Positions 37,132 to 51,624 of a stretch of DNA of 64,000 nt are shown piece after piece. Position 1 is the first letter of the stretch. The number at the start of each line of letters is the position of its first letter. The position numbers and the translations under genes are program-made. The stretch is taken from contig CACOAX010000001.1 in the NCBI GenBank assembly GCA_902625365.1, forward strand, positions 104,310-168,309. The letters are read 5' to 3'. The stretch is from an uncultured Alphaproteobacteria bacterium. Lineage in GTDB: Bacteria > Pseudomonadota > Alphaproteobacteria > HIMB59 > GCA-002718135. The notes beneath the pieces were generated by a model that saw nothing but the letters and a program-made list of their open reading frames with translations, did not search any database and had not been told where the DNA came from.

Positions 37132-38607
37132 ATGGGAAAAAAAGCAGTAGTTATAGGAAGTGGTTTTGGAGGTATTGCGATTAGTCTAAGACTAAAAAAA
37201 TTAGGCTATGATACAACAATTATTGAAAAACTAGACCAGCTTGGAGGAAGAGCAAGAGTTTTTGAAGTGAATGGTTTTAAACATGATGCTGGACCAACAG
37301 TTATAACAGCACCATTTCTTTTTGATGAATTATTTAGTCTATTTGGAAAAAAAAGAGAAGATTATTTGAGTTTTGTTCCTCTTGAGCCCTGGTATAGATA
37401 TTATTTTCATGATGGTAAAACTTTTGATTATTGTTCTACTATCGAAAAGACTAATAACGAAATAAGCAAATATGATAATAGAGACATCAAAGGATATTCT
37501 AAACTTTTAAATCAATCAAAAAAAATTTTTGATGTAGGGTTCACACAATTAGCTGACAAACCATTTATTTCTTTTTTTAAAATGTTAGGCGTTATTCCTA
37601 ATTTAATTATTTTAAAAAGTTATCTCACAGTATCTCAACTTGTAAATAGTTATCTAAAAAATCCATATCTTAGAAAAGCATTTTCAATTCACCCACTTTT
37701 AGTTGGAGGTGATCCTCACACAACAACATCTATTTACGCTTTGATTCATTATTTAGAGAGAAAATGGGGTGTATTTTTTTGTATGGGTGGAACTGGTAAA
37801 ATCGTATCTGAACTAAAACAATTAATGATTGATTGTGGTATTAAAATAAAAACAAATACAGAGGCAAAAGAATTTATTGTTGAAAATAATAGGATAACAA
37901 AAATATTAACAAACAATGAAGAGATTTCCAATATAGATCTGGTTGTTTGTAATGCTGATCCACCCATGGTTTACTCCAAACTTTTAAAAAAACAAAATTT
38001 AACAAGACCTGTATTAAAAGAAAAAAACTTATTGTATTCAATGGGGCTCTTTGTTCTTTTCTTTGGTACGAAAAAACAATACCATAAAGTTGCTCATCAT
38101 ACTATTTGGATGACTGAAAGATTTAAATCTTTACTTCATGATATATTTAAAAATAAAATATTATCTGAAGATTTTTCTTTATATATTCATAGACCTACCG
38201 CAACTGATAAGTCGTTTGCTCCGGAAGGATGTGATAGTTTTTATGTTCTATGCCCAGTACCCAATTTACAAGGCAAAATTGATTGGGATATTGAATCAGA
38301 AAACCTTAAAAATAAGATAGTTAAAGAATTATCACAAACAATTATGCCAGATTTAGAAAAGAGTATTACAGATGTTTTTTGGATGAACCCTAAAGATTTT
38401 AAAAACGATTATAATTCTATGCACGGAGCAGGATTTTCTATAGCCCCAATTTTTACACAGTCAGCTTGGTTTAGATATCACAACAAAGACAAAAAAATTA
38501 AAAATTTATATTTTTCTGCAGCAGGTTCTCATCCAGGGGCTGGAATACCAGGTGTTCTTTCCTCAGCTAAAGTTGTTGAAAATATCATCAAATCTGAATT
38601 AAAATAA
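37132..38607 (+). CDS. crtI: phytoene desaturase
   Basis: AVVIGSGFGGIA...GGRA dinucleotide fold; C-terminal GSHPGAGIPGV. Confidence 0.92.
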   Translation: MGKKAVVIGSGFGGIAISLRLKKLGYDTTIIEKLDQLGGRARVFEVNGFKHDAGPTVITAPFLFDELFSLFGKKREDYLSFVPLEPWYRYYFHDGKTFDYCSTIEKTNNEISKYDNRDIKGYSKLLNQSKKIFDVGFTQLADKPFISFFKMLGVIPNLIILKSYLTVSQLVNSYLKNPYLRKAFSIHPLLVGGDPHTTTSIYALIHYLERKWGVFFCMGGTGKIVSELKQLMIDCGIKIKTNTEAKEFIVENNRITKILTNNEEISNIDLVVCNADPPMVYSKLLKKQNLTRPVLKEKNLLYSMGLFVLFFGTKKQYHKVAHHTIWMTERFKSLLHDIFKNKILSEDFSLYIHRPTATDKSFAPEGCDSFYVLCPVPNLQGKIDWDIESENLKNKIVKELSQTIMPDLEKSITDVFWMNPKDFKNDYNSMHGAGFSIAPIFTQSAWFRYHNKDKKIKNLYFSAAGSHPGAGIPGVLSSAKVVENIIKSELK

Positions 38608-38609
38608 CA

Positions 38610-39491
38610 ATGATTGATTTAGAACTAAATTCGTCAACCGACCTTAAAAGAGAAGGTAAAAGTTTTTATTGGGCAAGTTTTTTTTTACCAAACAGTTCGA
38701 AAAAAAATGCTGGTATTCTATATTCGATTTGTAGATATTTTGATGATATTGCTGATAAGCATAGCCAAGACCAATCTAACTATCTTAAAAACTCAATTGA
38801 GGAAATTAAAAATAATAAAAACAATAAGGTAAATGTTTTTTTAAAAAAAAATAACATTAATAATGCTATTCTTATCGATTTAATTGACGGATTAATTTTG
38901 GATCAGAAGAATATTAGAATTCAAAATAAGGAGGAGCTTATAAAATACTCTTACCATGTTGCTGGGACTGTTGGTTTAATGATGTCTAAAATTATAGGAG
39001 TAAAACATAAAGAAGCATCAAAATCTGCAATTGATTTAGGAATTGGTATGCAATTAACAAATATAGCACGCGATGTTTATGAAGATTCAAAAATTAAAAG
39101 AATATATTTACCAGCTAGTTGGATACCTAATATTTCTTTAAAAGACTTAAACAATCTAAATAAATTTACTTCAGAAAATGATGAAAAAATATCAAATGCA
39201 ATTCATAAAGTAATAACTTTATCAGAAAAGTTTTATGAAAATGGTTTTGCTGGTTTGAAATATATACCCCTCTCTACTAGACTAGGAATATTCATTGCGG
39301 CTAATGTTTATAGAGGTATTGGTATAAAAATAAAATCTAATAAAAAAAAATATTTGAGAGAAAGAATATATTTAAACTCATTAGAAAAATCTTTTATTAC
39401 AATTAAATCACTTTTCCTTTTTATCTTTATCCCTTTGATGAATTATAAATATGAAACAATAAGAGATATTCTTCCAAATGAAAATTTATAA
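38610..39491 (+). CDS. crtB: phytoene synthase
   Basis: YSICRYFDDIAD and NIARDVYED (two Asp-rich squalene/phytoene synthase motifs). Confidence 0.9.
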   Translation: MIDLELNSSTDLKREGKSFYWASFFLPNSSKKNAGILYSICRYFDDIADKHSQDQSNYLKNSIEEIKNNKNNKVNVFLKKNNINNAILIDLIDGLILDQKNIRIQNKEELIKYSYHVAGTVGLMMSKIIGVKHKEASKSAIDLGIGMQLTNIARDVYEDSKIKRIYLPASWIPNISLKDLNNLNKFTSENDEKISNAIHKVITLSEKFYENGFAGLKYIPLSTRLGIFIAANVYRGIGIKIKSNKKKYLRERIYLNSLEKSFITIKSLFLFIFIPLMNYKYETIRDILPNENL

Positions 39492-40560
39492 AGCTGCTAT
39501 AATCGGTTTAGGCCCTAGTGGTTTAGCAGTAAATAAAATTCTTTACGGAAATGGCTTTAATGAAATTATTGCATTTGAAAGTGAAAACATAAATAAAAGA
39601 GATAATTTTTTTGGTTTTTGGTTAACAGATTGGATGAGGCCTTTTGAAAATATTATTGAAAAAAAATGGCATAAGTGGACTATTGGAAACAAAAATCTTG
39701 ATATAACACATACAAGTTTAGACAAACCTTATTGTGTCATAAGTTTTAAAACTTGGAAAAATTTCTGTTTAGAAACAAAAAATAACTTAGAAATAGTAAA
39801 TAAACAAGTTGTTCAATATTTTCCTGAACAAAATTATTTTAAAATAATTACTGCTGATAACAAAATATATTACGCTCAAAACATATATGATTCACGATCA
39901 ACAAAAGAAAAAAAAGGTGAATTGTTACAACATTTTTTTGGAATTAATATTACGGTAGCAGATAATACTTTTAATGAAAATAAATTAACCTTAATGCACT
40001 TTACAGAAGAAAAAAATGTTTTACACTTTATGTACATCCTGCCATTTAGTCATAATAAAGCGCTTGTTGAATCGACGGTCTTTTCAAAAGAAGTTTTTCA
40101 GAGCTCTTGGTATAGACAAAAAATAAATGATTATTTGAAGAGAAATAATATTAATACATTTAAAGAACAGAGTTCAGAAAAAGGAGTAATCCCAATGTTT
40201 TTTGCAGAGGAGAAAAGATCAGTTAATTCTAATATCTTCAATATTGGTATTAGAGGAGGTGCCTGCAAGCCTTCTACTGGATATGCCTTTTCATTTCTTA
40301 TAAAACAAATCCAATTGTTAAAAAGTTCAAAGAAAAACTATGTAAATATCCATAATTTTTTAGAAAGAAAAATGGATAAAGTTTTTATTAATTTTTTAAA
40401 AAATAACAGAGAAGATGGAAGGTCATTTATAAAGCTCGCATCTAATCTAAATGGAAATGAATTCCAAAGTTTTATGATGGGTGAATCAAATTTACTAACT
40501 AAGTTAAAAATTATAAACAGTATGCCCAAGCTTCCTTTTATAAAAGAATTATTTAAATAA
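39478..40560 (+). CDS. crtY: lycopene beta-cyclase
   Basis: AAIIGLGPSGLA; size and position between crtB and blh. Confidence 0.8.
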   Translation: MKIYKAAIIGLGPSGLAVNKILYGNGFNEIIAFESENINKRDNFFGFWLTDWMRPFENIIEKKWHKWTIGNKNLDITHTSLDKPYCVISFKTWKNFCLETKNNLEIVNKQVVQYFPEQNYFKIITADNKIYYAQNIYDSRSTKEKKGELLQHFFGINITVADNTFNENKLTLMHFTEEKNVLHFMYILPFSHNKALVESTVFSKEVFQSSWYRQKINDYLKRNNINTFKEQSSEKGVIPMFFAEEKRSVNSNIFNIGIRGGACKPSTGYAFSFLIKQIQLLKSSKKNYVNIHNFLERKMDKVFINFLKNNREDGRSFIKLASNLNGNEFQSFMMGESNLLTKLKIINSMPKLPFIKELFK

Positions 40561-40561
40561 T

Positions 40562-41380
40562 ATGTTAGCCGACCTTACAATTTTAAATATTATTTCTTTT
40601 TTACTAATTTTTTTCATTGGTCTTCCACATGGCTCATTTGATGGTGCAGTTGCTTCCTTAGTAGGTTTTAGAAACAGAATTCAATTTCTAAAATTTATAT
40701 TTTACTACCTATTTTTATTTTTTCTAGTCATTTTATTTTGGTTATATTTTCCTATTATTGCGCTAACAATTTTTATTATAATGACTATTGTCCATTTTGG
40801 ATTATGTGATTGGACAAATTTTAAAATAAACAAATATAAGTATACAATAAGCTTTACTTATGGAATGACTATTATTTTCGGAATAATATTTTTCAACGAA
40901 GATCAATCTTTTTTGATATTTGAATATTTGACAAATAATAATATTTATTCAATCCAAAAATATTTTTTTATCCCATATTTTCTAACATTATTATCTATAA
41001 TATATTTTATTTATCTCTCCTTTTTCGAAAAGAAATTACGAAAAGGAATTATTGAGATTCTATTTCTATTATTAATTTTTTATTTTTTTGATCCATTACT
41101 AAGCTTTGCAATATATTTCTGTTTTTTTCACACTTACAAACATTTGAAACATCTTATTAAAAATATTTACTTAAATTTAAAAAACAAATACTTCGTTATT
41201 TACTCCACAATAATTTTTACAGTAATTTCTTGGATTGGAGGTTTAGGAATTGTTTACTATTTATTTCAAAATTTATCATTGTATGAGTCGATATTAAAAG
41301 TGATTTTTATTGGACTAGCTGCATTAACACTTCCTCATATGTTACTTGTTGATCTTATTTACAGAAGAAGATTTAAATAA
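40562..41380 (+). CDS. blh: Brp/Blh-family beta-carotene 15,15'-dioxygenase (retinal synthesis)
   Basis: Polytopic membrane protein with the four conserved His contexts GLPHGSFDG, IVHFGLCDW, FFHTYKHL, TLPHMLL. Confidence 0.85.
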   Translation: MLADLTILNIISFLLIFFIGLPHGSFDGAVASLVGFRNRIQFLKFIFYYLFLFFLVILFWLYFPIIALTIFIIMTIVHFGLCDWTNFKINKYKYTISFTYGMTIIFGIIFFNEDQSFLIFEYLTNNNIYSIQKYFFIPYFLTLLSIIYFIYLSFFEKKLRKGIIEILFLLLIFYFFDPLLSFAIYFCFFHTYKHLKHLIKNIYLNLKNKYFVIYSTIIFTVISWIGGLGIVYYLFQNLSLYESILKVIFIGLAALTLPHMLLVDLIYRRRFK

Positions 41381-41434: not shown

Positions 41435-41509
41435 GCGGGCGTAGCTCAGGGGTAGAGCGCAACCTTGCCAAGGTTGAAGTCGAGGGTTCGAATCCCTTCG
41501 CCCGCTCCA
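41435..41509 (+). tRNA. tRNA-Gly (anticodon GCC), CCA encoded
   Basis: Folded by hand: GCGGGCG-TA-GCTC-AGGGGTA-GAGC-G-CAACC-TTGCCAA-GGTTG-AAGTC-GAGGG-TTCGAAT-CCCTT-CGCCCGC-T-CCA. Confidence 0.95.
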
Positions 41510-41510
41510 A
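41459..41510 (+). repeat. att-like core, copy 1 (within tRNA-Gly)
   Basis: 52 nt GCAACCTTGCCAAGGTTGAAGTCGAGGGTTCGAATCCCTTCGCCCGCTCCAA, identical to 42814-42865. Confidence 0.9.
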
Positions 41511-41546
41511 CAAAACTCCCAAAAACTGTAAAGTATATAAAAACAA

Positions 41547-41567
41547 GGGACACTAGCGGGACACTTA
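41547..41567 (+). repeat. arm-type-like motif, left copy
   Basis: GGGACACTAGCGGGACACTTA; two xxGGGACA half-sites 11 nt apart (41545, 41556). Confidence 0.6.
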
Positions 41568-41614
41568 AAGTTAAATTTACTTAATTTTAAATTGATTAAT
41601 GTTACAATTATAAA

Positions 41615-42652
41615 ATGAAATTTTTACTTGGTTTTGTGATTATAATATTGTCACTTAGCCTTAATGCTAATGACTCAAAACTTTGTTCAATTAATGATGG
41701 AGAAAAGTATCGAGTATCACCTTCTTGTGGTCAGTCAACTGGAGAAAAAATTGCTAATATTAGTGAGGCATATTGTATAAGTGCTCCTTTAAATTTTAGA
41801 AAAAGAAGTCCAGTACAAATAAAAGCAAATCAATTAAAAAAATATAAGGATTCATTTACAAGCAATTGGACCGATAATGAAACGTTACGGGGTTTGAATT
41901 TTGATAATATCAAAATGAAGTGTGATTATTTAATAACCTTAAAACAAAAAAATGATTATGTAGTTTGCTCAAACAAATCAACAAAAAATGGTAGAGAGAA
42001 ATGTTTCAACAACAATGGCCTTTATATAAATAATTTTGTTTCTTTGCGTGTAGCTGAAATGCTTAACATTCAAAATAATAAATTCATTACACTTAAAGCT
42101 TCAAATAAAACTGAAAACGAAAATGAGGAAACAACTTATATTACTGAAGTAAACCAAAATAAAAAAACAATCAAAACTGATACTAATTTGAATCCAAGCT
42201 CACAAATAGTAACTCAAGTTTTAAGTAAAGATAAAATAAAAGAAGAGTTAAAATATTATAAAGAACTATTTGACGAAGAATTAATTGAAAAATCCGAATA
42301 TGATGAGTTAAGAAAAGCACTTCTTGCTGGAATAAAAGAAGGATCGGTTACAAAAACAATAATAATGAATAAACCACAAGATGTTTTTATAAATTCTCAA
42401 AGTGACATAACTAAACTCGAAGAGCAACTTAAACTGGAACAAAGAAAAGTTAAAGCAATGGAAGATCAAGCAGCTGCAACCAAAAACAACAATGCAATTA
42501 TAAAAAAACAACAAAGTAATAAAGCTTGGGGTGCAATTATGGGTTTGGGGTTAAATATGATGACTGGTAATATTGGACCGGGATCAAACCAAAGGCAAAC
42601 TAATTGTTATGGTACTGGTAGTGGCTTTAATTGCACGTCTTACGACTGGTAG
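41615..42652 (+). CDS. secreted Cys-rich protein with SHOCT-like segment, coiled coil and C-terminal glycine-zipper
   Basis: Signal peptide MKFLLGFVIIILSLSLNA; 8 Cys in N-domain; ELKYYKELFDEELIEKSEYDELRKALLAGI (SHOCT-like); AWGAIMGLGLNMMTGNIGPG. Confidence 0.55.
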   Translation: MKFLLGFVIIILSLSLNANDSKLCSINDGEKYRVSPSCGQSTGEKIANISEAYCISAPLNFRKRSPVQIKANQLKKYKDSFTSNWTDNETLRGLNFDNIKMKCDYLITLKQKNDYVVCSNKSTKNGREKCFNNNGLYINNFVSLRVAEMLNIQNNKFITLKASNKTENENEETTYITEVNQNKKTIKTDTNLNPSSQIVTQVLSKDKIKEELKYYKELFDEELIEKSEYDELRKALLAGIKEGSVTKTIIMNKPQDVFINSQSDITKLEEQLKLEQRKVKAMEDQAAATKNNNAIIKKQQSNKAWGAIMGLGLNMMTGNIGPGSNQRQTNCYGTGSGFNCTSYDW

Positions 42653-42665
42653 ACTTAAGTAATTT

Positions 42666-42725
42666 GTGAGTTGCCCCATTGCCGGTTTTCAAGACCGGTG
42701 CTTTCAACCGCTCAGCCATCTCTCT
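42666..42725 (-). pseudogene. truncated tRNA-Ser(UGA): 5' two-thirds only (no T arm or 3' acceptor strand)
   Basis: Minus strand: AGAGAGA-TG-GCTGAGCGGTTGAAAGC-A-CCGGT-CTTGAAA-ACCGG-C-AATGGGGCAACTCAC, then unrelated sequence. Confidence 0.7.
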
Positions 42726-42729
42726 TTGC

Positions 42730-42750
42730 GGGACAGTAGCGGGACACTTA
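42730..42750 (+). repeat. arm-type-like motif, right copy
   Basis: GGGACAGTAGCGGGACACTTA (20/21 to left copy); GCGGGACA at 42728 and 42739. Confidence 0.6.
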
Positions 42751-42813
42751 GTTTACAAAATATTTAATTATGCTATTTAAAAACTAAGAAAAGGCGCTTC
42801 TCCATGGTAACGG

Positions 42814-42865
42814 GCAACCTTGCCAAGGTTGAAGTCGAGGGTTCGAATCCCTTCGCCCGCTCCAA
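42814..42865 (+). repeat. att-like core, copy 2 (perfect)
   Basis: 52/52 identical to 41459-41510; similarity stops sharply at the 5' base of the anticodon stem. Confidence 0.9.
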
Positions 42866-42965
42866 TAAACCTTACAAACTCTCTCTTTTTTCTGTTAAGC
42901 TTTTTTAAAGCTTTCTAATTTTAAATTCTTGTTATGACATCAGTGTGACAGAAAAAAATAGTCTT

Positions 42966-43574
42966 TTACAGACTTCTAACTAATTTCCTGACTTTTAACA
43001 TATGCTTATCAAATATTTTTTTATCCATATTAGGCAAAACTGAATAAAATCGAATATATTTTGTTTTTAAACCACCTAATTTAAATACTACTTTCTTAAT
43101 TCTTCTAAATGGTATGTTATCAAAAATTGAAAAATTTTGGTAACTAATCATTGGGCCCCCATAAGTAATCGAAATAATTCCAAGTTTACCCCTCATTGCT
43201 CCTGGAACAGGGTAACCATAGTTCTTAAAATATTTATTACCTGGTATTAGAGATTTATAAGAAAAAAACCATTTTGGATGAAGTACCCAATCTACCCAAT
43301 TTTCTAGAATTGCATTAAGCCTCAAATTATGACAACTTCCAATTAACATCATAACAGAACATCTTTCTAATCTTTTTCTGTATTCAAGAACAAGTTTTGG
43401 AGGAGGGTTAATATTTTGATTATAAAATGGAAGCCGCTCCTTTTCCTCAAAGAGATTAACCAAGTCAATTTCATGACCAAGTCTCTTTGCTTCATCTATA
43501 AACGTATCTCTAATTGCTGAATTAAAAGAGTCTTTATAATTGTGATGACCGAAAGCAATAAAAATTTTTTTCAT
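42966..43574 (-). CDS. flavodoxin-like-fold NAD(P)H (quinone) oxidoreductase family protein
   Basis: MKKIFIAFGHHN...; ...NAILENWVDWVL (Flavodoxin_2-like). Internal Met 43574 removes overlap with upstream gene. Confidence 0.6.
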   Translation of the reverse strand: MKKIFIAFGHHNYKDSFNSAIRDTFIDEAKRLGHEIDLVNLFEEKERLPFYNQNINPPPKLVLEYRKRLERCSVMMLIGSCHNLRLNAILENWVDWVLHPKWFFSYKSLIPGNKYFKNYGYPVPGAMRGKLGIISITYGGPMISYQNFSIFDNIPFRRIKKVVFKLGGLKTKYIRFYSVLPNMDKKIFDKHMLKVRKLVRSL

Positions 43575-43581
43575 TAAAATT

Positions 43582-43884
43582 TTATAATATTTTTGTAAAC
43601 CCTTCAAATTCTGGATGACCTAAATAAAGATGTTTATTACTACCTGCATTTTTATGGGAGAGACGAAATTTTTCTGATTTTGTCCAGTTAACGAAATCTT
43701 CTTCAGAATTCCATATGCTATGAGAGGCATACAGGGTATATTCATCTGTAGTTTTACCTTTAATCAAGTTAAAGTTTTTAAACCCTGGAACTTTATCTAA
43801 GTGTGCTTCTCTATTTTCCCAAACCTTTTCAAAATCATTTTCTTTACCAATAACAATCTTAAATCTATTCATAGCGATAAACAT
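43582..43884 (-). CDS. ABM (antibiotic-biosynthesis-monooxygenase) domain protein
   Basis: 100 aa ferredoxin-like: MNRFKIVIGKENDFEKVWENRE...SIWNSEEDFVNWTKSEKF. Confidence 0.65.
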   Translation of the reverse strand: MFIAMNRFKIVIGKENDFEKVWENREAHLDKVPGFKNFNLIKGKTTDEYTLYASHSIWNSEEDFVNWTKSEKFRLSHKNAGSNKHLYLGHPEFEGFTKIL

Positions 43885-44047
43885 TATATATATCTAACCA
43901 ATAAAAATATTTTTTTTTCATACATCATATGAAATATTTGTTATGTTTATATTTATTATTAATTTAGAATTAACTAATTTTTTTTTATTTAAAATAAAAA
44001 TTTTTACTAAATTAATAATTCCATCAAAAACAATAATCTAATCTTGT

Positions 44048-44095
44048 CCTTGCCAATGTCGAAGTGGAGGGTTAGAATCCCTTAGCTGATTACAA
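44048..44095 (+). repeat. att-like core, copy 3 (degenerate)
   Basis: CCTTGCCAATGTCGAAGTGGAGGGTTAGAATCCCTTAGCTGATTACAA; ungapped 37/48 to the tRNA-Gly 3' half (hand alignment). Confidence 0.6.
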
Positions 44096-44298
44096 TTAAT
44101 AGAAGTTAAAATCTAATAAAACCTATCTAGTTCTTCAGCAAAAAGTGTTAATTTCACCAAAGTATGTTTTATTTTCCTTTATACATCTGAGGTTTGAAAC
44201 GTCTACTCACTTAAATAAAATATACAAACCTTCTCAAATGTATGTTAATTTTCTAAAATTCTATTAAAAACTATTGCTACCACCAGCTAATTGTTTTT

Positions 44299-44763
44299 TT
44301 AAATTTTTTTTTCTAAAAAATTTAATTTTTTAATTTTAGATGATGAAATGCTCTTAGTATAAGGAATATCTATAACTTTTCCTCTCCATTTTTTGATTAA
44401 ATTGATTAATTTTTGCCTTTCTTTTTTTTGAGGTCCTTTTTTCCAATCACTTCCATGAACGAAAAAATCAACTTTTAATTTTTCAGCAATTTTACAATAT
44501 ATTAAACCATTCAAAGGAATAATATAATCTACATTTTTTATTTGTGAGATTATTTCCTTTCTTTGTCTAAAATTTAAAACTGGATCTCCTTTATAAGATT
44601 TTAATCCACTATCTGTCATTAATCCAACAATTATAGAACCATATCTACTTGCTTTCTTGATTATTCTAATGTGCCCATGATGTAAAAAATCTACAGCCAT
44701 TGGTAAAAAAACAATTGGTCTTTTAATTTTTTTAATATTTTTTAAATTTTTTTTTGAAATCAT
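44299..44763 (-). CDS. cytidylyltransferase-family protein (TagD/glycerol-3-phosphate cytidylyltransferase-like)
   Basis: AVDFLHHGHIRII (HxGH), FVHGSDW, YTKSISSSKIKK (RTxGISTT-like). Confidence 0.75.
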   Translation of the reverse strand: MISKKNLKNIKKIKRPIVFLPMAVDFLHHGHIRIIKKASRYGSIIVGLMTDSGLKSYKGDPVLNFRQRKEIISQIKNVDYIIPLNGLIYCKIAEKLKVDFFVHGSDWKKGPQKKERQKLINLIKKWRGKVIDIPYTKSISSSKIKKLNFLEKKI

Positions 44764-44916
44764 TTATTCCTTTAAACTTAGTAAACAAAAACCATTAGTT
44801 TATATAAATGCTTTATATTTTTTAAATTTAAAATTTAGCATAATCATTTACATGTGATTTAAAACAAAAATTTACAGAAATATTTTAATTAGTATTTATC
44901 AAAACTCATTTCTAGA

Positions 44917-44966
44917 AATTTTGCCAAGATTGAAATCAAGCTTTCTAATCATTTTGACCACTACAA
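44917..44966 (+). repeat. att-like core, copy 4 (more degenerate)
   Basis: AATTTTGCCAAGATTGAAATCAAGCTTTCTAATCATTTTGACCACTACAA; ungapped 36/50 to the tRNA-Gly 3' half (hand alignment). Confidence 0.5.
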
Positions 44967-45095
44967 GAACCTCCAGAAGTTCCACTTTATATTTAATAAG
45001 TTTTAAATTTTTGTTTTAGTCTTTATGTATAATATTTACTAAAAAACTACTTTATTATTTAAAAAATAATTTAAAATATTTTTGAATTCTTACTT

Positions 45096-46106
45096 TCAGT
45101 TTTTCTTTAAATCTAAAATTTTTTTTACTATAAATTTTGAATATATTTCTGATTTAAACTGTTCTGCTTCTTTTGAGTTTAAAAAATTTTTAATATTTTC
45201 TAAGTAATTTTCGTACTTTTTTTCATTAATTGATTTTAAATATGCAACTAATTCTGTATAATTTTTATACTTATTTTTATCAATATAACAGTTACTTGGA
45301 ATGTATTTATCAATATTATCTGCGCCTAAATATATCGGAACTACATTTGCAAAAAAACAATGAAAAATTTTTTCAGTAATATAACCATTGTAATTAATAG
45401 CATTTTCATAACAAATACTAAATTTATACATAGATAAAGTTTGAATTTTATCAAAAATATCACCCTTGTAAGATTTTGACTTAATGTTAAAAAAAGATAT
45501 TGGATGAAGTAGTTTTGAATATAAAAAATTTAATAATTTATTAGAACTTATTAATTTATTCCAATTTCTTCCATATAAGTCAAATTCATCGGGAATAATT
45601 TTTTCCAACCATTTAATAGCATTGTATCTTTCAGAATATAATTCATTCTCATCATTAATTTTTTTATTCTCACTTATTAAAGTCAAAAATTTTTTTTTAT
45701 TAAAAGGGGTTTTTAATGTTTTCTGAGGAAATTTATATGTAAGTTGAAATTTAAAATATTTTTTATTATCAACATAATTATCATTCCATGTAAATATTAT
45801 ATCAAATAAATCATGATATGATTCAATCCAGTTTTTTTTATGTATAGTAGGGTTCTCAGCTATAATTAAAGCTGAGACTGCTCTGCTGTTAATCTTAAGT
45901 TTTTTTGGAATATCCACATATATATTTATTTCGCTTTTACTAATTTTATTAATATCTGGTGTAGCTATATTTATATTATTATTAGAGAGTTCACGTTTTA
46001 GGCATAAATATTTGTATCTATATCCATCTGGATCATTAGATTTTTCTACATTAAATATTTCATTACTAGTATTGGCAAAATTAGTTATTAGTGTTGCTTG
46101 TAACAT
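45096..46106 (-). CDS. GT10-family alpha-1,3-fucosyltransferase-like glycosyltransferase
   Basis: YKFSICYENAINYNGYITEKIFHCFFANVVPIYLG matches the FucT motif (YKF..FENS....Y.TEK ... P.Y.G). Confidence 0.7.
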   Translation of the reverse strand: MLQATLITNFANTSNEIFNVEKSNDPDGYRYKYLCLKRELSNNNINIATPDINKISKSEINIYVDIPKKLKINSRAVSALIIAENPTIHKKNWIESYHDLFDIIFTWNDNYVDNKKYFKFQLTYKFPQKTLKTPFNKKKFLTLISENKKINDENELYSERYNAIKWLEKIIPDEFDLYGRNWNKLISSNKLLNFLYSKLLHPISFFNIKSKSYKGDIFDKIQTLSMYKFSICYENAINYNGYITEKIFHCFFANVVPIYLGADNIDKYIPSNCYIDKNKYKNYTELVAYLKSINEKKYENYLENIKNFLNSKEAEQFKSEIYSKFIVKKILDLKKN

Positions 46107-46195
46107 AGAATATAATTGTTATACTAACAATACATCAATATTTATTTTATAATAACAAAGTTTTAATTTCAAAATTTAAATAATCTGTGTTTATA

Positions 46196-46771
46196 TTAAT
46201 CGTTAAAGTAAACATATTGATTTATATTAGGATACTTTTTCTTTAAATCTAAAAATATTTCATTCCAGTCACTCTGAGTTTTCAAGCATAGGTGTATATT
46301 TTTTCCATCATCAAAATATTTTGAAGCTGGAATTGTTGCAATTACAAAAAAAATAAACTTGTTTGACAATTTAAATAGTTCATCAATAAAATTCATAACA
46401 TCCTTTTCAGGAATATGCTCTATAACGTCTGTGCAAATTATACCATCAAATCTTTTATTTGGATAAGTTGAAAATTTTTCTACTCCAGGATCATACAAGA
46501 AGATATTTTCGATACCCCAAAAATCTGATAAATTTTTGAATTCGTTATCTCCAATTTTAAATTTATTACTATATAAAAAGGCTTTTCCACAACCAAAATC
46601 TACTATTGAATTAGCATTATTAATTTTTATAATTTCTTTAATTTTAACAATCCATTTGGTCAGAGAATATCCAAGAAACGTACTTTCTCCAGGCAGGTTT
46701 TTAATGCCATTTTTATGAAAAATTTTATACTTTTCAATAACTTTATAATAATAATCTGAGTAATTTTCCAT
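46196..46771 (-). CDS. class I SAM-dependent methyltransferase
   Basis: Motif I IVDFGCGKAF; DGIICTDVIEHIPE. Confidence 0.8.
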   Translation of the reverse strand: MENYSDYYYKVIEKYKIFHKNGIKNLPGESTFLGYSLTKWIVKIKEIIKINNANSIVDFGCGKAFLYSNKFKIGDNEFKNLSDFWGIENIFLYDPGVEKFSTYPNKRFDGIICTDVIEHIPEKDVMNFIDELFKLSNKFIFFVIATIPASKYFDDGKNIHLCLKTQSDWNEIFLDLKKKYPNINQYVYFND

Positions 46772-46842
46772 TTCTGTTTACTTTACTATATCAACTTAAT
46801 TATAAACATAAATATAATTAAAAATATTACAAAATAAAATAT

Positions 46843-47688
46843 ATGACATTTAATCCTATAGCCGCTATAAACGTTCTTGAGTGTAGAAATATAATAAAAA
46901 ATGAAAATCCTGAAGCAATTGATTTAGGTTCGCAAACATCTTCTATAAGTAGTACTTTTATATCTAGCTTAATTCATCAAAACTCTAAATTAAAAGATTC
47001 ACAAAAAAAAAATTTAGAAAATCTGAAAAATAAAAATGGTTTTAGTACTAAAGATTACTTTCAATCTATTGGTTTCAGTAATTACAAGTCTATAGATATA
47101 AATGGTGTATATGAAAGCTATCAATTTGATCTAAATAAAAATATTTCAAAAACTTATAATTTTAATCAAAAATATGATCTTGTTATTAATAACGGAACAG
47201 GTGAACATGTATTTAATCAATATGCATTATATTTGAATTTTCACAACTTAACTAAAACTGATGGTATAATGTTAAATATACTACCTTTTATCGATTGGAT
47301 TAATCATGGTTTTTATAACTTTAATCCCATTTTTTTTGCTGATTTAGCAGCATCAAATAAATATAAAATTGAAAAAATATCATTAGCAAATAGAGATGGT
47401 GCTGAGTTGAAGTTAGATGCTAGTGATTATGAAATAATGTTTGAACAAATTAAACCTCGTATAAATGATTCTAAATTTAATAAAATGATTGAAATAGCTA
47501 AAACTAAGATTGGCAAAAATATTCTTCTTGTTGTGGTGTTAAAAAAACTCTTCGATAATAAATTTAAAACACCACTTCAAGGAAAGTATTTAAGTGATGT
47601 TTCATCATTTAAAACAGATTACAATTATCAAGGGAAGGGTAGTGCAAATGCTAAAAATCAAATTTCTGATAATAACAAAAGAAAATGA
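46843..47688 (+). CDS. methyltransferase-fold protein with degenerate SAM motif I
   Basis: AIDLGSQTSS (in place of DxGxGxG), YDLVINNGTGEHVFNQ. Confidence 0.4.
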   Translation: MTFNPIAAINVLECRNIIKNENPEAIDLGSQTSSISSTFISSLIHQNSKLKDSQKKNLENLKNKNGFSTKDYFQSIGFSNYKSIDINGVYESYQFDLNKNISKTYNFNQKYDLVINNGTGEHVFNQYALYLNFHNLTKTDGIMLNILPFIDWINHGFYNFNPIFFADLAASNKYKIEKISLANRDGAELKLDASDYEIMFEQIKPRINDSKFNKMIEIAKTKIGKNILLVVVLKKLFDNKFKTPLQGKYLSDVSSFKTDYNYQGKGSANAKNQISDNNKRK

Positions 47689-47692
47689 AAAA

Positions 47693-48454
47693 TTACTCTT
47701 CTAGAAAATTTCTATAATTGAATAATTCAAAGTTAAATTCACCAATTATATTTATATACTTCCTGTAGAATTTAGTTTTACTTCTTTTACTTACACCGTG
47801 AATAGAAAAAGGAGAGTTTAAAAACATTACTAGCCTATTTTGTTTATACTCTATTTCTTCAATCAAATTTACTTTTTCTTCTCTAACTCTAGATTTACCA
47901 TAAAAACTTGGCTTATCTTTAAAATCATATGTCATTAAATTTCCACCTTCAGAGTTATCTTTTTCATCTTTCATATATAAAAGAGCAGCATAAAATTCAA
48001 CTGGGTTATCCAAATGTGGTTCAATGACTTTAGTATCGCCACTAGTAGGCGTATTAATTACAAATTGACAATCTAGATTAAAGTAGTTTTTACTTTCAAA
48101 CCTAACTCCAATATTATTTTTATTAAATAATCTTTCTCTTTCTACTTTATAAATTTTTTTAATTGACTCTCCAAAAATTTCATAAAAATCTTCTAAGAAC
48201 TCATAACTTGTATGAAATTTTATAAATTCTTTCCACTCGCTACTAATTTCATTATCTCTAAGTGAATTATATGCATTATATCTGTAAGCAAAATTTTCTT
48301 TATATTCATTATTACCTATTATTTTTTCATATTTTGGAAAATCCGCATTTAATTTATTATAAATATCTTCAGGCAGAGCATCATCAATTATTAAATATGG
48401 AAATTTATCAAACTTAAATTTTATTTTTTGTTTATTTTGTAAAACACTGTACAT
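47693..48454 (-). CDS. 2OG-Fe(II) oxygenase-fold protein
   Basis: HxD...H facial triad candidates IEPHLDNP ... FSIHGVS, trailing basic residue. Confidence 0.55.
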   Translation of the reverse strand: MYSVLQNKQKIKFKFDKFPYLIIDDALPEDIYNKLNADFPKYEKIIGNNEYKENFAYRYNAYNSLRDNEISSEWKEFIKFHTSYEFLEDFYEIFGESIKKIYKVERERLFNKNNIGVRFESKNYFNLDCQFVINTPTSGDTKVIEPHLDNPVEFYAALLYMKDEKDNSEGGNLMTYDFKDKPSFYGKSRVREEKVNLIEEIEYKQNRLVMFLNSPFSIHGVSKRSKTKFYRKYINIIGEFNFELFNYRNFLEE

Positions 48455-48534
48455 AAAAATTAGATAAAGTTTAAGATTAGATATCAGAAATGAATTTATT
48501 TATAAAGTAAGTAATTAGTTTATAATGTTATTAA

Positions 48535-49296
48535 ATGGAAAAACCGGTTGTTATTTACACTGATCATATAGTTAATAAAACATTATGTTATAATTTTGCA
48601 AAAGGATCAGGTTCGCTTATGTGTCATGTTAGTAAATTTAGAGATTATAACAAAGCAATTGCAACTTATGGTATTTTAAGAGGTACGCTTGAAATAATTA
48701 AAAAGGTTAGAAATTTTTACTATATGGACCATGGTTATTTTAATCAGTCGAAAAGATCTTTTGAAAATAATCGTACAAATATAATCAATTTAGACGGTTA
48801 TTTTAGAATAGTTTACAACAACTTTATACATAATGGCAAAGGTAACTATCCTGATGATAGACTAAAAAAATTAAATCTTAAAATTCACGATCAAAGAAAA
48901 TCTGGTAATCATATAATTCTTTCTGAACCATCGAATGCTATGAAAAAATTATATAATGTACCAAATTGGACTGAAGATACATTAAAATTAGTAAGAAAAT
49001 ATACAGATAGAAAACTTGTGGTACATAATAAATTTTCAAATAAACCATTAAATGTATTATTTAAAGATGCTTGGGCATTTGTGAGTTTGCAATCAACTGC
49101 TGGTTTTATTGCAATGTCCGAAGGAATTCCCTCATATTTTACTGAAAATACTTTATGTAATATAGGACAAATCCGGAATATTGAAAAGCCAAGTATAGAT
49201 TATGAGATTTTTAACAACTTAGCATATGGTCAGTGGACACTTAAAGAAATTGAAACTGGAGAGGCATGGGAATATATTTCGAGAAATTTTTTTTGA
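48535..49296 (+). CDS. hypothetical protein (possibly glycosyltransferase-like C-terminal half)
   Basis: Clean 253-aa ORF in island; no motif I can name with confidence. Confidence 0.4.
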   Translation: MEKPVVIYTDHIVNKTLCYNFAKGSGSLMCHVSKFRDYNKAIATYGILRGTLEIIKKVRNFYYMDHGYFNQSKRSFENNRTNIINLDGYFRIVYNNFIHNGKGNYPDDRLKKLNLKIHDQRKSGNHIILSEPSNAMKKLYNVPNWTEDTLKLVRKYTDRKLVVHNKFSNKPLNVLFKDAWAFVSLQSTAGFIAMSEGIPSYFTENTLCNIGQIRNIEKPSIDYEIFNNLAYGQWTLKEIETGEAWEYISRNFF

Positions 49297-49301
49297 TTTA
49301 G

Positions 49302-49895
49302 CTAAGCCTGTATTGTAACATTAAAACTTATTACAATTCTCTCATCATTAGACAGATTTTCGTTAACAGAATGATCAACATAGCTAGGAAATAATATTAG
49401 AGCCCCTTCTTTAGGTGTAATGCTATTAATATGAGCATTAAGTAAATTAGAGCCTACAGCCTCTGGATAATAAAAGACTGGTGCAGGTCTAGGATCATAA
49501 AAGACAATATCACCACAGTTTTTTGGTGCACGTATATAGTAGGCTCCACTTATGGTGCTATTACCATGTTGGTGTCTTGAATTTGTTGAACCTCCAGTAT
49601 TAATTATGGCCCACATATTGCTTATTTTAATAGATTGTTTTTCCTTTTCCCAATTCATATCTATCATTACTTTCTCAATAGACGGTGAAATATTTTTAAT
49701 AAAGTTTTTAGGCTCTGTTTCTTGCATGTTAAAATCTTTTGAATGCCAACCTTTATTATTACTTTTTTTTATTCCTGTTTTATCTTTAATTTGAGATTCT
49801 TTAATGTAAGTATACATTTCTGCATTAATACTTTCAAAATTTTCAAGTTGTATTGTCCAAACAGGAGTAGGAAAGAGAAGATTTGGTTTGTTCAT
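49302..49895 (-). CDS. 2OG-Fe(II) oxygenase-like protein (TIGR02466-type family by recollection)
   Basis: LLFPTPVW N-terminus, NSRHQHGNS, ILFPSYVDHSV. Confidence 0.65.
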   Translation of the reverse strand: MNKPNLLFPTPVWTIQLENFESINAEMYTYIKESQIKDKTGIKKSNNKGWHSKDFNMQETEPKNFIKNISPSIEKVMIDMNWEKEKQSIKISNMWAIINTGGSTNSRHQHGNSTISGAYYIRAPKNCGDIVFYDPRPAPVFYYPEAVGSNLLNAHINSITPKEGALILFPSYVDHSVNENLSNDERIVISFNVTIQA

Positions 49896-50117
49896 ATTTT
49901 ATATTTATATCAATTTGCTGAATCAGTAAACAAAACTTAGTTAAATGTAATCGTGTTAAGTTTTTAATCTAGTCTTTTAGTCTAAAATATTTTTTAATTA
50001 TTTCGATAGTATTTTTAATTCTATAGTCATGCTGTTTAAAATTCTTCCTACCTGAGGTAATTTCGTGATGATTTTTAATTAACATTTTAAGATATTTTGG
50101 AATTTTATTTTTTTTAA

Positions 50118-51035
50118 TCAATGTTTAAATAGTCTATTTTTTGAAAAGTATAATGAAATTTTATTCTTTATTGAAAATGCTATTACCTTTTTATCATTTA
50201 TTGATCCACTCGGTTGAACTACCACATTACAACCATTTTTATAAAGTAGCTTGATACTATCTGTAAAAGGAAAAAATCCATCTGATGCACAAACAAAAAT
50301 TCCTTTTCTAAAATATTTATTCATATTTTTAATAGCTTCTTTTAATGCATCCACTCTATTAGTTTGTCCATGTCCTAATCCTAAAGTTTGTTTATTTCTG
50401 GATAGTACAATAGCATTTGACTTTAAATGCTTTACAACTTTTAGTGAGAAAATTAAGTCATCAATTGATTTTACAGAACCTCTTTTTTTTGAGACCAATT
50501 TAAGAAAATTTTTATTGATTGGTGTCAAATCTGTTGTTTGATACAGATCTCCAAATAGAGTTGATTTATACTCAATAGGCATTTTTTTAATATTAGGCAT
50601 TTTCAATAAAATTAAATTCTTCTTCTTTTCTAATATCTTAAGAGCATCTTGATCATAATCTGAGGCGACAATCATTTCATAAAAGTTTTTAAATATTTTT
50701 TTTGCAAGGCTATAAGAAACTCTACGATTAAGCAAAATTATCCCTCCAAAAGCGCTTATAGGATCACTTTCATAAGATTTATTAAAAGCTACCTCGATAT
50801 TTTTTGCCGAAGCAATACCACAAGGATTTGTATGTTTCAGAATTATTGATGTAGGTTCACGAAATTCTTTTAAGCATTTTAATCCACTATCAAGATCAAT
50901 AAGATTATTATAACTCATTTTTTTTCCATTAATCTTGTATTTTAAAACAGAGGTTTTTGTATTGCTATGTAAATAACTGTTTTGATTTGGGTTTTCACCG
51001 TATCTTAATTTAATTTTTTTGTTTTTATTATTCAT
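50118..51035 (-). CDS. purH: AICAR formyltransferase (C-terminal domain of PurH as a separate ORF)
   Basis: KLRYGENPNQ, KHTNPCGIA, SDPISAFGGII, ASDGFFPF, C-terminal LFKH. Confidence 0.9.
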   Translation of the reverse strand: MNNKNKKIKLRYGENPNQNSYLHSNTKTSVLKYKINGKKMSYNNLIDLDSGLKCLKEFREPTSIILKHTNPCGIASAKNIEVAFNKSYESDPISAFGGIILLNRRVSYSLAKKIFKNFYEMIVASDYDQDALKILEKKKNLILLKMPNIKKMPIEYKSTLFGDLYQTTDLTPINKNFLKLVSKKRGSVKSIDDLIFSLKVVKHLKSNAIVLSRNKQTLGLGHGQTNRVDALKEAIKNMNKYFRKGIFVCASDGFFPFTDSIKLLYKNGCNVVVQPSGSINDKKVIAFSIKNKISLYFSKNRLFKH

Positions 51036-51624
51036 TCAACCAATTAGAAATAACTTTATCATATTTAGAAGTCTCATTAAAAACTTTTAATGCCATTTTT
51101 TTTCTGAAAAAAATATCAGTTGTTCCACTATTTTTATTTAAATTTGTAATTAATTTTTTATAATCCATAATATCTATTATTGGAGTAATATATCTGAAAT
51201 TTTTTCCTGCTGCCCTTAACAGAGCTGGTCCCCCTATATCAATCATTTCTATTATTTTATCGCTATTATGTTTTCCTAAATATTTCTTAAATGGATATAG
51301 ATTTACAACAACGATATCTATTTTAGGGAAATTTAATAATTGAAACTGTTTTAGATGAGTTTTGTTATCTCTTTTGTAGAGCAAAGAGCTGTATATTAGT
51401 GGGTTTAAAGTTTTAACCCTACCATCAAACATTTCTTTAAATTTAGTTAGTTTTGAAATATCTTTACATTTAAAACCCAAACTACGTATTTTTGCTCCCG
51501 TAGAGCCACTTGAAATAAAATTATAATTATATCTATTTAAATTATCACAGAGATATCTTAAATTTTTTTTTTCGAATACAGAGATTAAAGCAAATTTTTT
51601 GTTTAGATTTTTTCTAAGGACCAT
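51028..51624 (-). CDS. purH: IMP cyclohydrolase (MGS-like N-terminal domain of PurH as a separate ORF)
   Basis: FALISVFEKKN, DGRVKTLNP, VVVNLYPF, MIDIGGPALLRAAGKN; stops in the interdomain linker; 8-nt overlap ATGAATAA with the next ORF. Confidence 0.85.
   Translation of the reverse strand: MVLRKNLNKKFALISVFEKKNLRYLCDNLNRYNYNFISSGSTGAKIRSLGFKCKDISKLTKFKEMFDGRVKTLNPLIYSSLLYKRDNKTHLKQFQLLNFPKIDIVVVNLYPFKKYLGKHNSDKIIEMIDIGGPALLRAAGKNFRYITPIIDIMDYKKLITNLNKNSGTTDIFFRKKMALKVFNETSKYDKVISNWLNE

Follow-up and report, generated by a model that had tools for sequence, protein, structure and literature searches.

A tRNA-Gly(GCC) gene of SAR11 bacteria as a probable hotspot of serial integration by small, mostly integrase-less cassettes

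tRNA genes are preferred targets of integration (PMC8477408, citing Williams 2002). In Prochlorococcus, tycheposons integrate serially at island tRNAs, where partial tRNAs are found between the elements and older elements are pushed inward (10.1101/2020.12.28.424599), and an additive island of Methylophilaceae can be recognised by repeated copies of the final 20 bp of tRNA-Lys (PMC10872708). For streamlined SAR11, a lack of canonical mobile elements has been reported together with islands that hold partial tRNA repeats (PMC11796062), and a 2026 preprint argues from indirect evidence that phages insert into the main hypervariable region with a tRNA as anchor (10.64898/2026.04.03.716430). SAR11 is the most abundant bacterial group of the ocean and is usually called near-free of mobile elements, and gene acquisition in its hypervariable regions has so far been argued from indirect evidence. 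In this study, we analysed a 64,000-nt stretch of contig CACOAX010000001.1 (assembly GCA_902625365.1), referred to as the window, in which a tRNA-Gly(GCC) gene is followed by a variable island that reaches to purH. An initial annotation of the window had described four co-oriented, decaying copies of the 3' half of this tRNA and read them as the traces of serial integration. Our results strongly favour this reading: the tRNA-Gly(GCC)-purH interval is very probably an additive island that arose by repeated site-specific integration of small tRNA-targeting elements. The locus is a genuine serial-integration hotspot, with a mechanism that is itself familiar and that is unusually clear here in SAR11. 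A literature search returned no description of this tRNA-Gly island locus.

As in known tandem arrays of tRNA-targeting elements, copies of the 3' part of a tRNA follow the intact gene in the same orientation, with identity from the anticodon stem up to the 3' end; intact members carry an integrase beside the att site, and newer elements lie nearest to the tRNA. In contrast to such arrays, the SAR11 units are mostly tiny (0.5-2 kb, one to two genes) and lack an integrase, yet they recur as discrete units, which we call cassettes. With tycheposons, as these are described, the locus shares the streamlined genome of the oligotrophic ocean, the island tRNA targets (seven tRNAs in Prochlorococcus), the partial tRNAs as separators and the degenerate remnants. 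Tycheposons are characterised by a deep-branching clade of tyrosine recombinases and by hallmark replication genes, and the cassettes of the window do not carry tycheposon hallmark genes. In one related locus (L066), the integrase is accompanied by a DUF5906 protein, perhaps a replication protein of the primase/helicase type, which is suggestive only. In additive flexible islands, too, cassettes are stacked variably next to a tRNA, tRNA 3'-end repeats recur across strains and the cargo serves metabolism, surface modification or defence; their reports note the repeats, but families of cassettes, arm motifs, remnants of integrases and the decay of scars are not described.

From the window, the intact tRNA-Gly(GCC) gene named in the initial annotation could be confirmed by both ARAGORN and Rfam (Table 1), and the 52-mer of its 3' part (41459-41510) recurs without mismatch as the perfect direct repeat that had been described. 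For the two degenerate copies, an identity of 36/50 at 44917-44966 was borne out and one of 37/48 at 44048-44095 had to be corrected to 38/48. All four copies, with the tRNA itself counted, lie on the plus strand, as had been claimed. The window is AT-rich (20-36% GC), and elsewhere in it the top match to the 52-mer reaches 27/52, with a mean of 12.1 and a standard deviation of 3.0 over 128 kb of both strands. In local alignments controlled by 1000 dinucleotide shuffles per gap, a comparison which the initial annotation had proposed, the two degenerate copies stand far above background (z = 22.5 for copy 3 and 18.1 for copy 4, with 0 of 1000 shuffles reaching the observed score), and their alignment scores of 29 and 22 compare with at most 10 for real-sequence tiles from elsewhere in the window. 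An nhmmer profile trained solely on repeat copies of other genomes retrieves both of them (44048-44095 with E = 6e-9, 44917-44966 with E = 7e-6). The repeat-bearing gaps of 313, 414 and 332 nt, correctly described as exceptional at the outset, contrast with a median gap of 7 nt in the window, and the copies occupy three of its ten gaps of at least 200 nt. Inserted DNA with an intact tRNA at one side and the 3' part of that tRNA repeated in direct orientation at the other, as found here, is a hallmark of tRNA-targeting integrative elements.

The alignment of the blh / tRNA-Gly / purH interval from relatives, which had likewise been proposed, was carried out on 68 loci from SAR11 single-cell genomes that were found by a blh protein search. 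Counting all matches to the 52-mer of at least 30/52 in these loci and the window, we obtained 164 copies on the tRNA strand and 0 on the opposite strand; all 164 lie between tRNA and purH, and many of the distal ones are perfect. The distance from tRNA to purH varies from 2.6 kb (L055, which holds no cassette) to 9.4 kb. DNA between consecutive copies sorts into recurrent families, among them F1 (~0.5 kb, with an 86-aa open reading frame (ORF)), F2 (~1.25 kb, with a sulfotransferase), F3 (~2 kb) and F5 (cassette A of the window), which occupy slots 1 to 4 in variable order, e.g. F1, F2 in L004, F2, F1 in L022 and F5, F1, F10, F2 in L042. Homology breakpoints cluster at the repeats: of 1062 internal breakpoints, 26.6% are no more than 5 nt away from a repeat edge, compared to 0.6% at random (44x). 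The refuting outcome that the initial annotation had named, an invariant interval with breakpoints unrelated to the repeats, is thus not what we observe. Presence/absence polymorphism with breakpoints at att edges, another hallmark of tRNA-targeting integrative elements, is therefore found at this locus. It should be noted that metagenome contigs with an F2-type sulfotransferase are mostly 1.0-1.4 kb long, about the size of the cassette; short-read assemblies thus seem to be interrupted at the att repeats, with the island under-represented as a result.

Cassettes are shared between genomes at an identity well above that of their surroundings. Cassette A, bounded on both sides by perfect 52-nt repeats, is 99.3% identical over 1284 of its 1303 nt to the cassette in slot 1 of L042, while the flanking core DNA of L042 is 89.3% identical to the window upstream and 75.3% downstream, which indicates that cassette A arrived recently and horizontally. 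Pairs of F1 and F2 cassettes reach 99.4-99.6% identity between genomes with an upstream core that is 82-84% identical, and some of these near-identical pairs sit in different slots (e.g. slot 1 of L015 and slot 3 of L037). Overall, cassettes more than 99% identical occur in genomes whose flanking core genes are 82-89% identical.

In agreement with the initial annotation, no integrase is present in the 64 kb: tblastn with five island integrases returned noise only, up to E = 50, and no remnant. Integrase activity in the window is therefore deduced from the relatives, where a tyrosine integrase beside the att site, a further hallmark of integrative elements, does occur at the same locus. By Pfam scans of clustered island ORFs we detected a 343-aa Phage_integrase protein in L066 (Pfam E = 1.6e-16, with a weak hit to an arm-binding domain), which starts 89 nt after the tRNA and has full-length homologues in L058 and L036 at the left end of slot 1. 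A second lineage, ~33% identical, is encoded on the opposite strand in L035 (Pfam E = 1.8e-24) and L065, where it lies at the right-hand end of slot 1. All five elements with a full-length integrase thus occupy slot 1. Partial copies are seen in L063 and L010, where the available sequence ends; full-length integrases are present in ~5 to 7 of 68 cells, mostly in slot 1. At least nine loci still have an N-terminal integrase stump of 48-124 aa, nearly always at the left end of a cassette. The intact elements measure 5-7.5 kb. Besides the integrase they encode, among others, a DUF5906 protein, an MMPL transporter and a MORN-repeat protein, and the island ORFs overall also include genes for restriction-modification, McrBC and DndB. 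A phmmer search of the island ORFs with the integrase of an unrelated contig (L001) gave no match.

Over the 164 copies, the common core extends from the 5' side of the anticodon stem to CCA. Variants at core positions 1-3 go with the upstream cassette, and the base after CCA goes with the downstream one. The 52-nt repeat had initially been delimited as running to CCA plus one base; its recurrence stands, and the 52nd base has to be assigned to the downstream cassette. An anticodon-loop class of tRNA integration sites, with a block of identity from the anticodon stem to the 3' end, was reportedly distinguished by Williams in 2002, and the limits of the core seen here match this class. Outside the core, the right ends of cassettes follow a common order of a tRNA-Ser(TGA)-like segment on the minus strand, a tandem 6-8-mer with copies spaced 11 nt, TAAGAAAAGG, a degenerate tRNA-Gly 5' half that is kept in many cassettes, and the core. 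The left ends carry, ~37 nt after the core, a tandem motif that is usually the same as at the right end, namely GGGACAC in cassette A (41547 and 42730), GTAGCC in F1, GTCCCAC in F2 and TGTGAC in F3, the last being common to F3 and the integrase-bearing elements of L035 and L065. Tandem GC-containing 6-mers with a spacing of 10-12 nt are present at 44/62 left ends and 35/62 right ends, and 24/62 cassettes have the same 6-mer at both ends, as compared to 4% of shuffled pairings and 0/48 cassette centres. The exact GGGACAnTAGCGGGACACTT motif is found on a contig of 57% GC, ~50 nt downstream of tRNA-Tyr and ~230 nt upstream of an integrase of the same family. Given the matched cassette ends and such tRNA and integrase neighbours elsewhere, the tandem motifs are likely arm-type integrase sites. 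The contig of 57% GC, L157 (1-700), is from an unrelated high-GC bacterium and has the exact motif GGGACACTAGCGGGACACTT, which also occurs in L148 (936-1055), there 25 nt after tRNA-Trp.

A second class of att scar is shorter and covers only ~24 nt of the tRNA, between T-loop and 3' end. We counted 17 such scars in other loci, e.g. in L002 (11692), L007 (13170/14621/15493) and L044 (13271-17057), and 0 in the window. Most of those inspected follow tandem CAATA(T/G)AGTT repeats, which implies a different type of integrase at the same tRNA.

The tRNA-Ser(TGA) segment of the right end has a likely origin in the chromosome. In F2 cassettes it is identical to the genuine gene from position 4 to CCA (positions 4-90) and lies 7 nt after the stop of the sulfotransferase (e.g. 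L004 12598-12687), and at a different, conserved native SAR11 locus (L164 8001-8925) a ~60% identical sulfotransferase is likewise followed by 7 nt and then the genuine tRNA-Ser(TGA). The cargo of F2 therefore looks like a captured chromosomal segment, and capture of this kind, of a sulfotransferase with its tRNA-Ser, may be one way in which the extensive paralogy known from SAR11 islands has come about. The shorter fragment in cassette A is 98% identical to cassette-borne and chromosomal tRNA-Ser. We also considered tRNA-Ser as a second att target and rejected it: the chromosomal tRNA-Ser locus is devoid of tRNA-Ser and tRNA-Gly repeats, so that the tRNA-Ser piece is better read as captured host DNA.

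Repeat copies tend to be more decayed the farther along the array they lie. Mean identity of the long-class copies falls from 51.9 in slot 1 over 50.0 and 47.5 to 41.5 of 52 in slot 4. Substitutions in the scars are strongly biased, with 9 of 14 changes in copy 3 and 14 of 15 in copy 4 from GC to AT, and 182 GC to AT against 23 AT to GC changes overall, as is expected for non-functional relics in an AT-rich genome. Cassette B allows the decay of a single scar to be followed. The initial 1150 nt of the 1.99-kb F3 cassettes of L021, L024, L031, L038 and L067 align with it at 91-94% identity, and these cassettes and B have the same right-end flank; since cassette B terminates in the nucleotides of the F3 right end, copy 3 and the repeat to the right of F3 are orthologous. 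Other genomes have this repeat with scores of 49, 49, 41 and 33 of 52, as against 38 in the window, and we therefore see one scar caught at various stages of decay.

We propose a model in which each element bears an attP with a ~50-nt core identical in sequence to the tRNA between its anticodon stem and CCA end, both included. A tyrosine integrase would recombine this attP with the tRNA, with a crossover that, judged from the core boundaries, most likely lies in the anticodon loop. Integration would restore an intact tRNA at the left, and the element would be closed on its right by the duplicated 3' half (attR). Later arrivals would mostly enter at the tRNA and shift earlier elements toward purH, integrase genes would then be deleted to give one- or two-gene cassettes that keep the core and the tandem arm-type motifs, and unused attR scars would erode under the AT-biased mutation pressure of SAR11. 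For the window, this would make cassette A a recent arrival, B an older one from a widespread family and C one older still, all three having lost their integrase. The model is built on observed repeats, on the presence or absence of cassettes at the repeat edges, on the integrases and stumps of relatives, on horizontal spread and on AT-biased decay; together these support the serial integration at one tRNA attB that had been put forward. For the movement of integrase-less cassettes we infer either an integrase acting in trans or homologous recombination at the repeats. The locus thus offers a sequence-resolved mechanism, with a 50-nt att core, candidate arm sites, integrases in a minority of cells and integrase stumps, and the att core and cassette ends could be used as markers for counting gene-gain events in long-read metagenomes.

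Several observations weigh against serial integration as the full account. The window holds no integrase, integrase remnant or excisionase by Pfam scan and tblastn. An intact element that combines the GGGACAC arm motif with the tRNA-Gly core was not found among SAR11 sequences, and the circular (attP) junction of cassette A gave 0 exact-pattern matches in metagenome contigs, a search that easily misses short circles. Furthermore, 13 of 26 arrays with at least three copies are non-monotonic, some with perfect copies distal to decayed ones, so that the monotonic decay claimed initially holds for the mean by slot and not for every array; insertion must therefore also take place at distal copies, or arrays are reshuffled. 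Finally, the 20 nt upstream of the core differ between the window (42794-42813) and L042 (12233-12252), the cassette A copies being otherwise 99.3% identical, and each of the two variants recurs at the ends of other, unrelated cassettes. The swapped segment points to homologous recombination among cassette backbones as well. On these grounds it is possible, if clearly the less probable case, that present turnover of cassettes is RecA-dependent, with the ~50-nt repeats and the ~170-nt backbone as portable homology, and that integrases seeded the system long ago. Most arrays, including that of the window, are without an integrase, shuffled cassette orders and perfect distal copies are readily accommodated, an entry of cassette A by recombination, with the tRNA and copy 2 as anchors, is conceivable, and recombination rates of SAR11 are very high. 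However, efficient exchange by RecA usually takes more than ~50 nt, cassettes that have intact repeats but no integrase retain, as a rule, matching tandem motifs at their two ends, the boundaries of the core fit an integrase site and not arbitrary homology, and full-length integrases do persist in a minority of cells, where they mostly reside in slot 1.

It is very improbable that the copies are scars of decayed temperate pelagiphages which integrated at tRNA-Gly and left moron genes behind. Pelagiphages of the HTVC019P and HTVC010P types do integrate at SAR11 tRNA genes with cores of 11-46 bp, but the attB sites named for them are tRNA-Cys, -Leu, -Arg, -Asn and -Met, with tRNA-Gly not among them (10.1101/410191; PMC8477408). 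The island integrases have their closest phage relatives in records of Ralstonia and Burkholderia phages, at 30-37% identity, yet the intact relatives at the locus are small (5-7.5 kb) non-phage elements of integrase plus cargo, and no phage structural family is found among the leading Pfam families of representative island ORFs of at least 250 aa. The searches for a phage genome with the matching attP, which like phage structural or replication genes is a hallmark of a prophage, were negative. In INPHARED, no record contains a 28-nt word of the core, a megablast search with the 52-mer gave no match, and blastn with the tRNA returned tRNA genes alone, at no more than 87% identity. In IMG/VR, the exact 47-mer matches one high-GC contig with a complete tRNA beside an integrase, the 32-nt left part of the core matches one further contig of 43% GC, and the 28-mer matches 74 contigs, of which the AT-rich ones hold either tRNA-Gly(TCC) genes of phages or 3' halves whose variable loop differs, so that no AT-rich contig has the core; the L066 integrase gave one weak, irrelevant match. 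The pelagiphage source of attP at which the initial annotation had hinted was thus not found. Even less credible is a local tandem duplication of tRNA-Gly followed by decay, or chance similarity, which we consider effectively refuted by strand bias, core limits, the transfer of cassette A and z-scores. ARAGORN does call a second tRNA-Gly at 42790-42864, and a few loci (L006, L053) hold second copies of near full length. However, the 3' portion alone is copied, with a sharp limit at the anticodon stem, the DNA between the copies is unrelated among modules and horizontally mobile, z-scores range from 18 to 36 and the strand bias is 164 to 0. The second tRNA call is itself a pseudo-tRNA, since it scores 25.1 bits, below the Rfam threshold of 29 bits, and its first three acceptor pairs are broken.

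Two IMG/VR contigs of 32-37% GC, L070 (569-596) and L131 (1126-1153), carry a tRNA-Gly(GCC) 3' half without the 5' half and are attP-like. Both were excluded as the attP source by their variable loop; since it differs from that of the SAR11 tRNA, these viral contigs probably target another host.

Beyond serial integration as such, the locus might function as an integron-like platform without a resident integrase, a tentative idea that we hold to be doubtful rather than established. Mini-cassettes with a complete attP (50-nt core, P and P' arms, ~170-nt backbone) would be moved in trans between divergent SAR11 lineages by the integrases of rare relatives, and their backbone would stem from the captured sulfotransferase/tRNA-Ser(TGA) segment. 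If this held true, a large share of the flexible, paralogue-rich gene pool would come from the platform, in a cell that is otherwise without mobile elements. Similar to integron arrays, short and mostly single-gene units with recombination sites are collected on one platform, the newest mostly near the insertion point and in variable order. In contrast to integrons, intI, attI and Pc are missing, as are attC sites at the cassette ends of the window, the recombination site being a tRNA 3' half and not a folded attC; cargo lies on both strands, and the integrases are of lambda type with an arm-binding domain and are borne by elements instead of the platform. Cis-mobilizable elements (CIMEs), described in streptococci beside conjugative elements, resemble the cassettes as integrase-less units that keep both att sites and stand in tandem with, or replace, integrase-bearing relatives. 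However, no conjugation genes were seen here, and mobilization by accretion would be an analogy.

Table 1. Features of the tRNA-Gly(GCC)-purH island in the window (positions are those of the window).
Feature	Position	Strand	Remarks
tRNA-Gly(GCC), intact	41435..41509	+	ARAGORN; Rfam 70.9 bits; role as attB/attL
Recombination core, anticodon stem to CCA end	~41459-41509	+	limits from 164 copies, 68 loci
Cassette A (family F5)	41511..42813	+	1303 nt; without integrase; recent acquisition
Left-end tandem motif GGGACACTAGCGGGACACTTA	41547..41567	+	candidate P' arm-type integrase site; direct repeat
Cargo ORF of cassette A	41615..42652	+	345 aa; hydrophobic N-terminus; no Pfam family
tRNA-Ser(TGA) fragment, positions 4-58	42668..42722	-	Rfam 22.8 bits; fossil of cassette backbone
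Right-end tandem motif GGGACAGTAGCGGGACACTTA	42730..42750	+	candidate P arm-type site
Degenerate tRNA-Gly 5' half	42790..42813	+	preceded by conserved TAAGAAAAGG; pseudo-tRNA together with copy 2
att copy 2	42814..42865	+	52/52; attR of cassette A
Cassette B, short F3 variant	42866..44043	-	flavodoxin-like NAD(P)H dehydrogenase 42966-43607; ABM monooxygenase 43582-43884 (Pfam)
Left-end tandem motif of cassette B, TATGACA/TGTGACA	42933-42950		
att copy 3	44044..44095	+	38/52 ungapped; decayed attR of cassette B
Cassette C	44096..44914	-	cytidylyltransferase gene 44299-44763 (Pfam); older, lineage-specific
att copy 4	44915..44966	+	37/52 ungapped; most decayed scar
Lineage-specific segment	44967..46129	-	GT10 fucosyltransferase-like gene 45096-46106; distal repeat lost
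Semi-conserved flexible block	46130..50117	.	methyltransferases, 2OG-Fe(II) oxygenases, ORFs without Pfam family; no tRNA-bounded cassette
purH, two overlapping ORFs	50118..51624	-	conserved distal island boundary

The initial annotation had divided the island into modules A, B, C and D, of which A, B and C could be retained as repeat-bounded cassettes. Cassette C and the adjacent GT10 gene are absent from all 68 related loci, and their arrangement is repeated in two metagenome contigs. Module D, extending from copy 4 to purH, encodes a GT10 glycosyltransferase, methyltransferases, 2OG-Fe(II) oxygenases and two ORFs without a Pfam family. For this module the annotation had reported no distal repeat, and indeed the nhmmer profile found no fifth, more decayed copy in the window. 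The stretch from 46130 to purH resembles the purH-proximal region of many loci at 72-84% identity, adjoining purH there as well, and its last gene is found in 41 loci; module D as one cassette is therefore ruled out, with only 44967-46129 being lineage-specific.

Both flanks of the island are conserved. Directly upstream of tRNA-Gly, the window carries a complete retinal biosynthesis cluster of crtI, crtB, crtY and blh (37132-41380), and this cluster forms the left flank of the island in all 68 loci. At the distal side, purH is split on the minus strand into 50118-51035 (305 aa, the AICARFT part) and 51028-51624 (198 aa, the MGS/IMP cyclohydrolase part), which overlap by 8 nt. A two-gene purH is also called in the metagenome contig L162 (305 + 204 aa), and because of this same arrangement the split looks native and not like a sequencing error. 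Variation anchored at a tRNA is also seen in another region: L163 and L164 are 94.3% identical until 18 nt past the 5' end of tRNA-Ser(TGA) (~8943) and wholly different from there on, and L163 carries a 352-aa Phage_integrase gene ~6.6 kb beyond the point of divergence.

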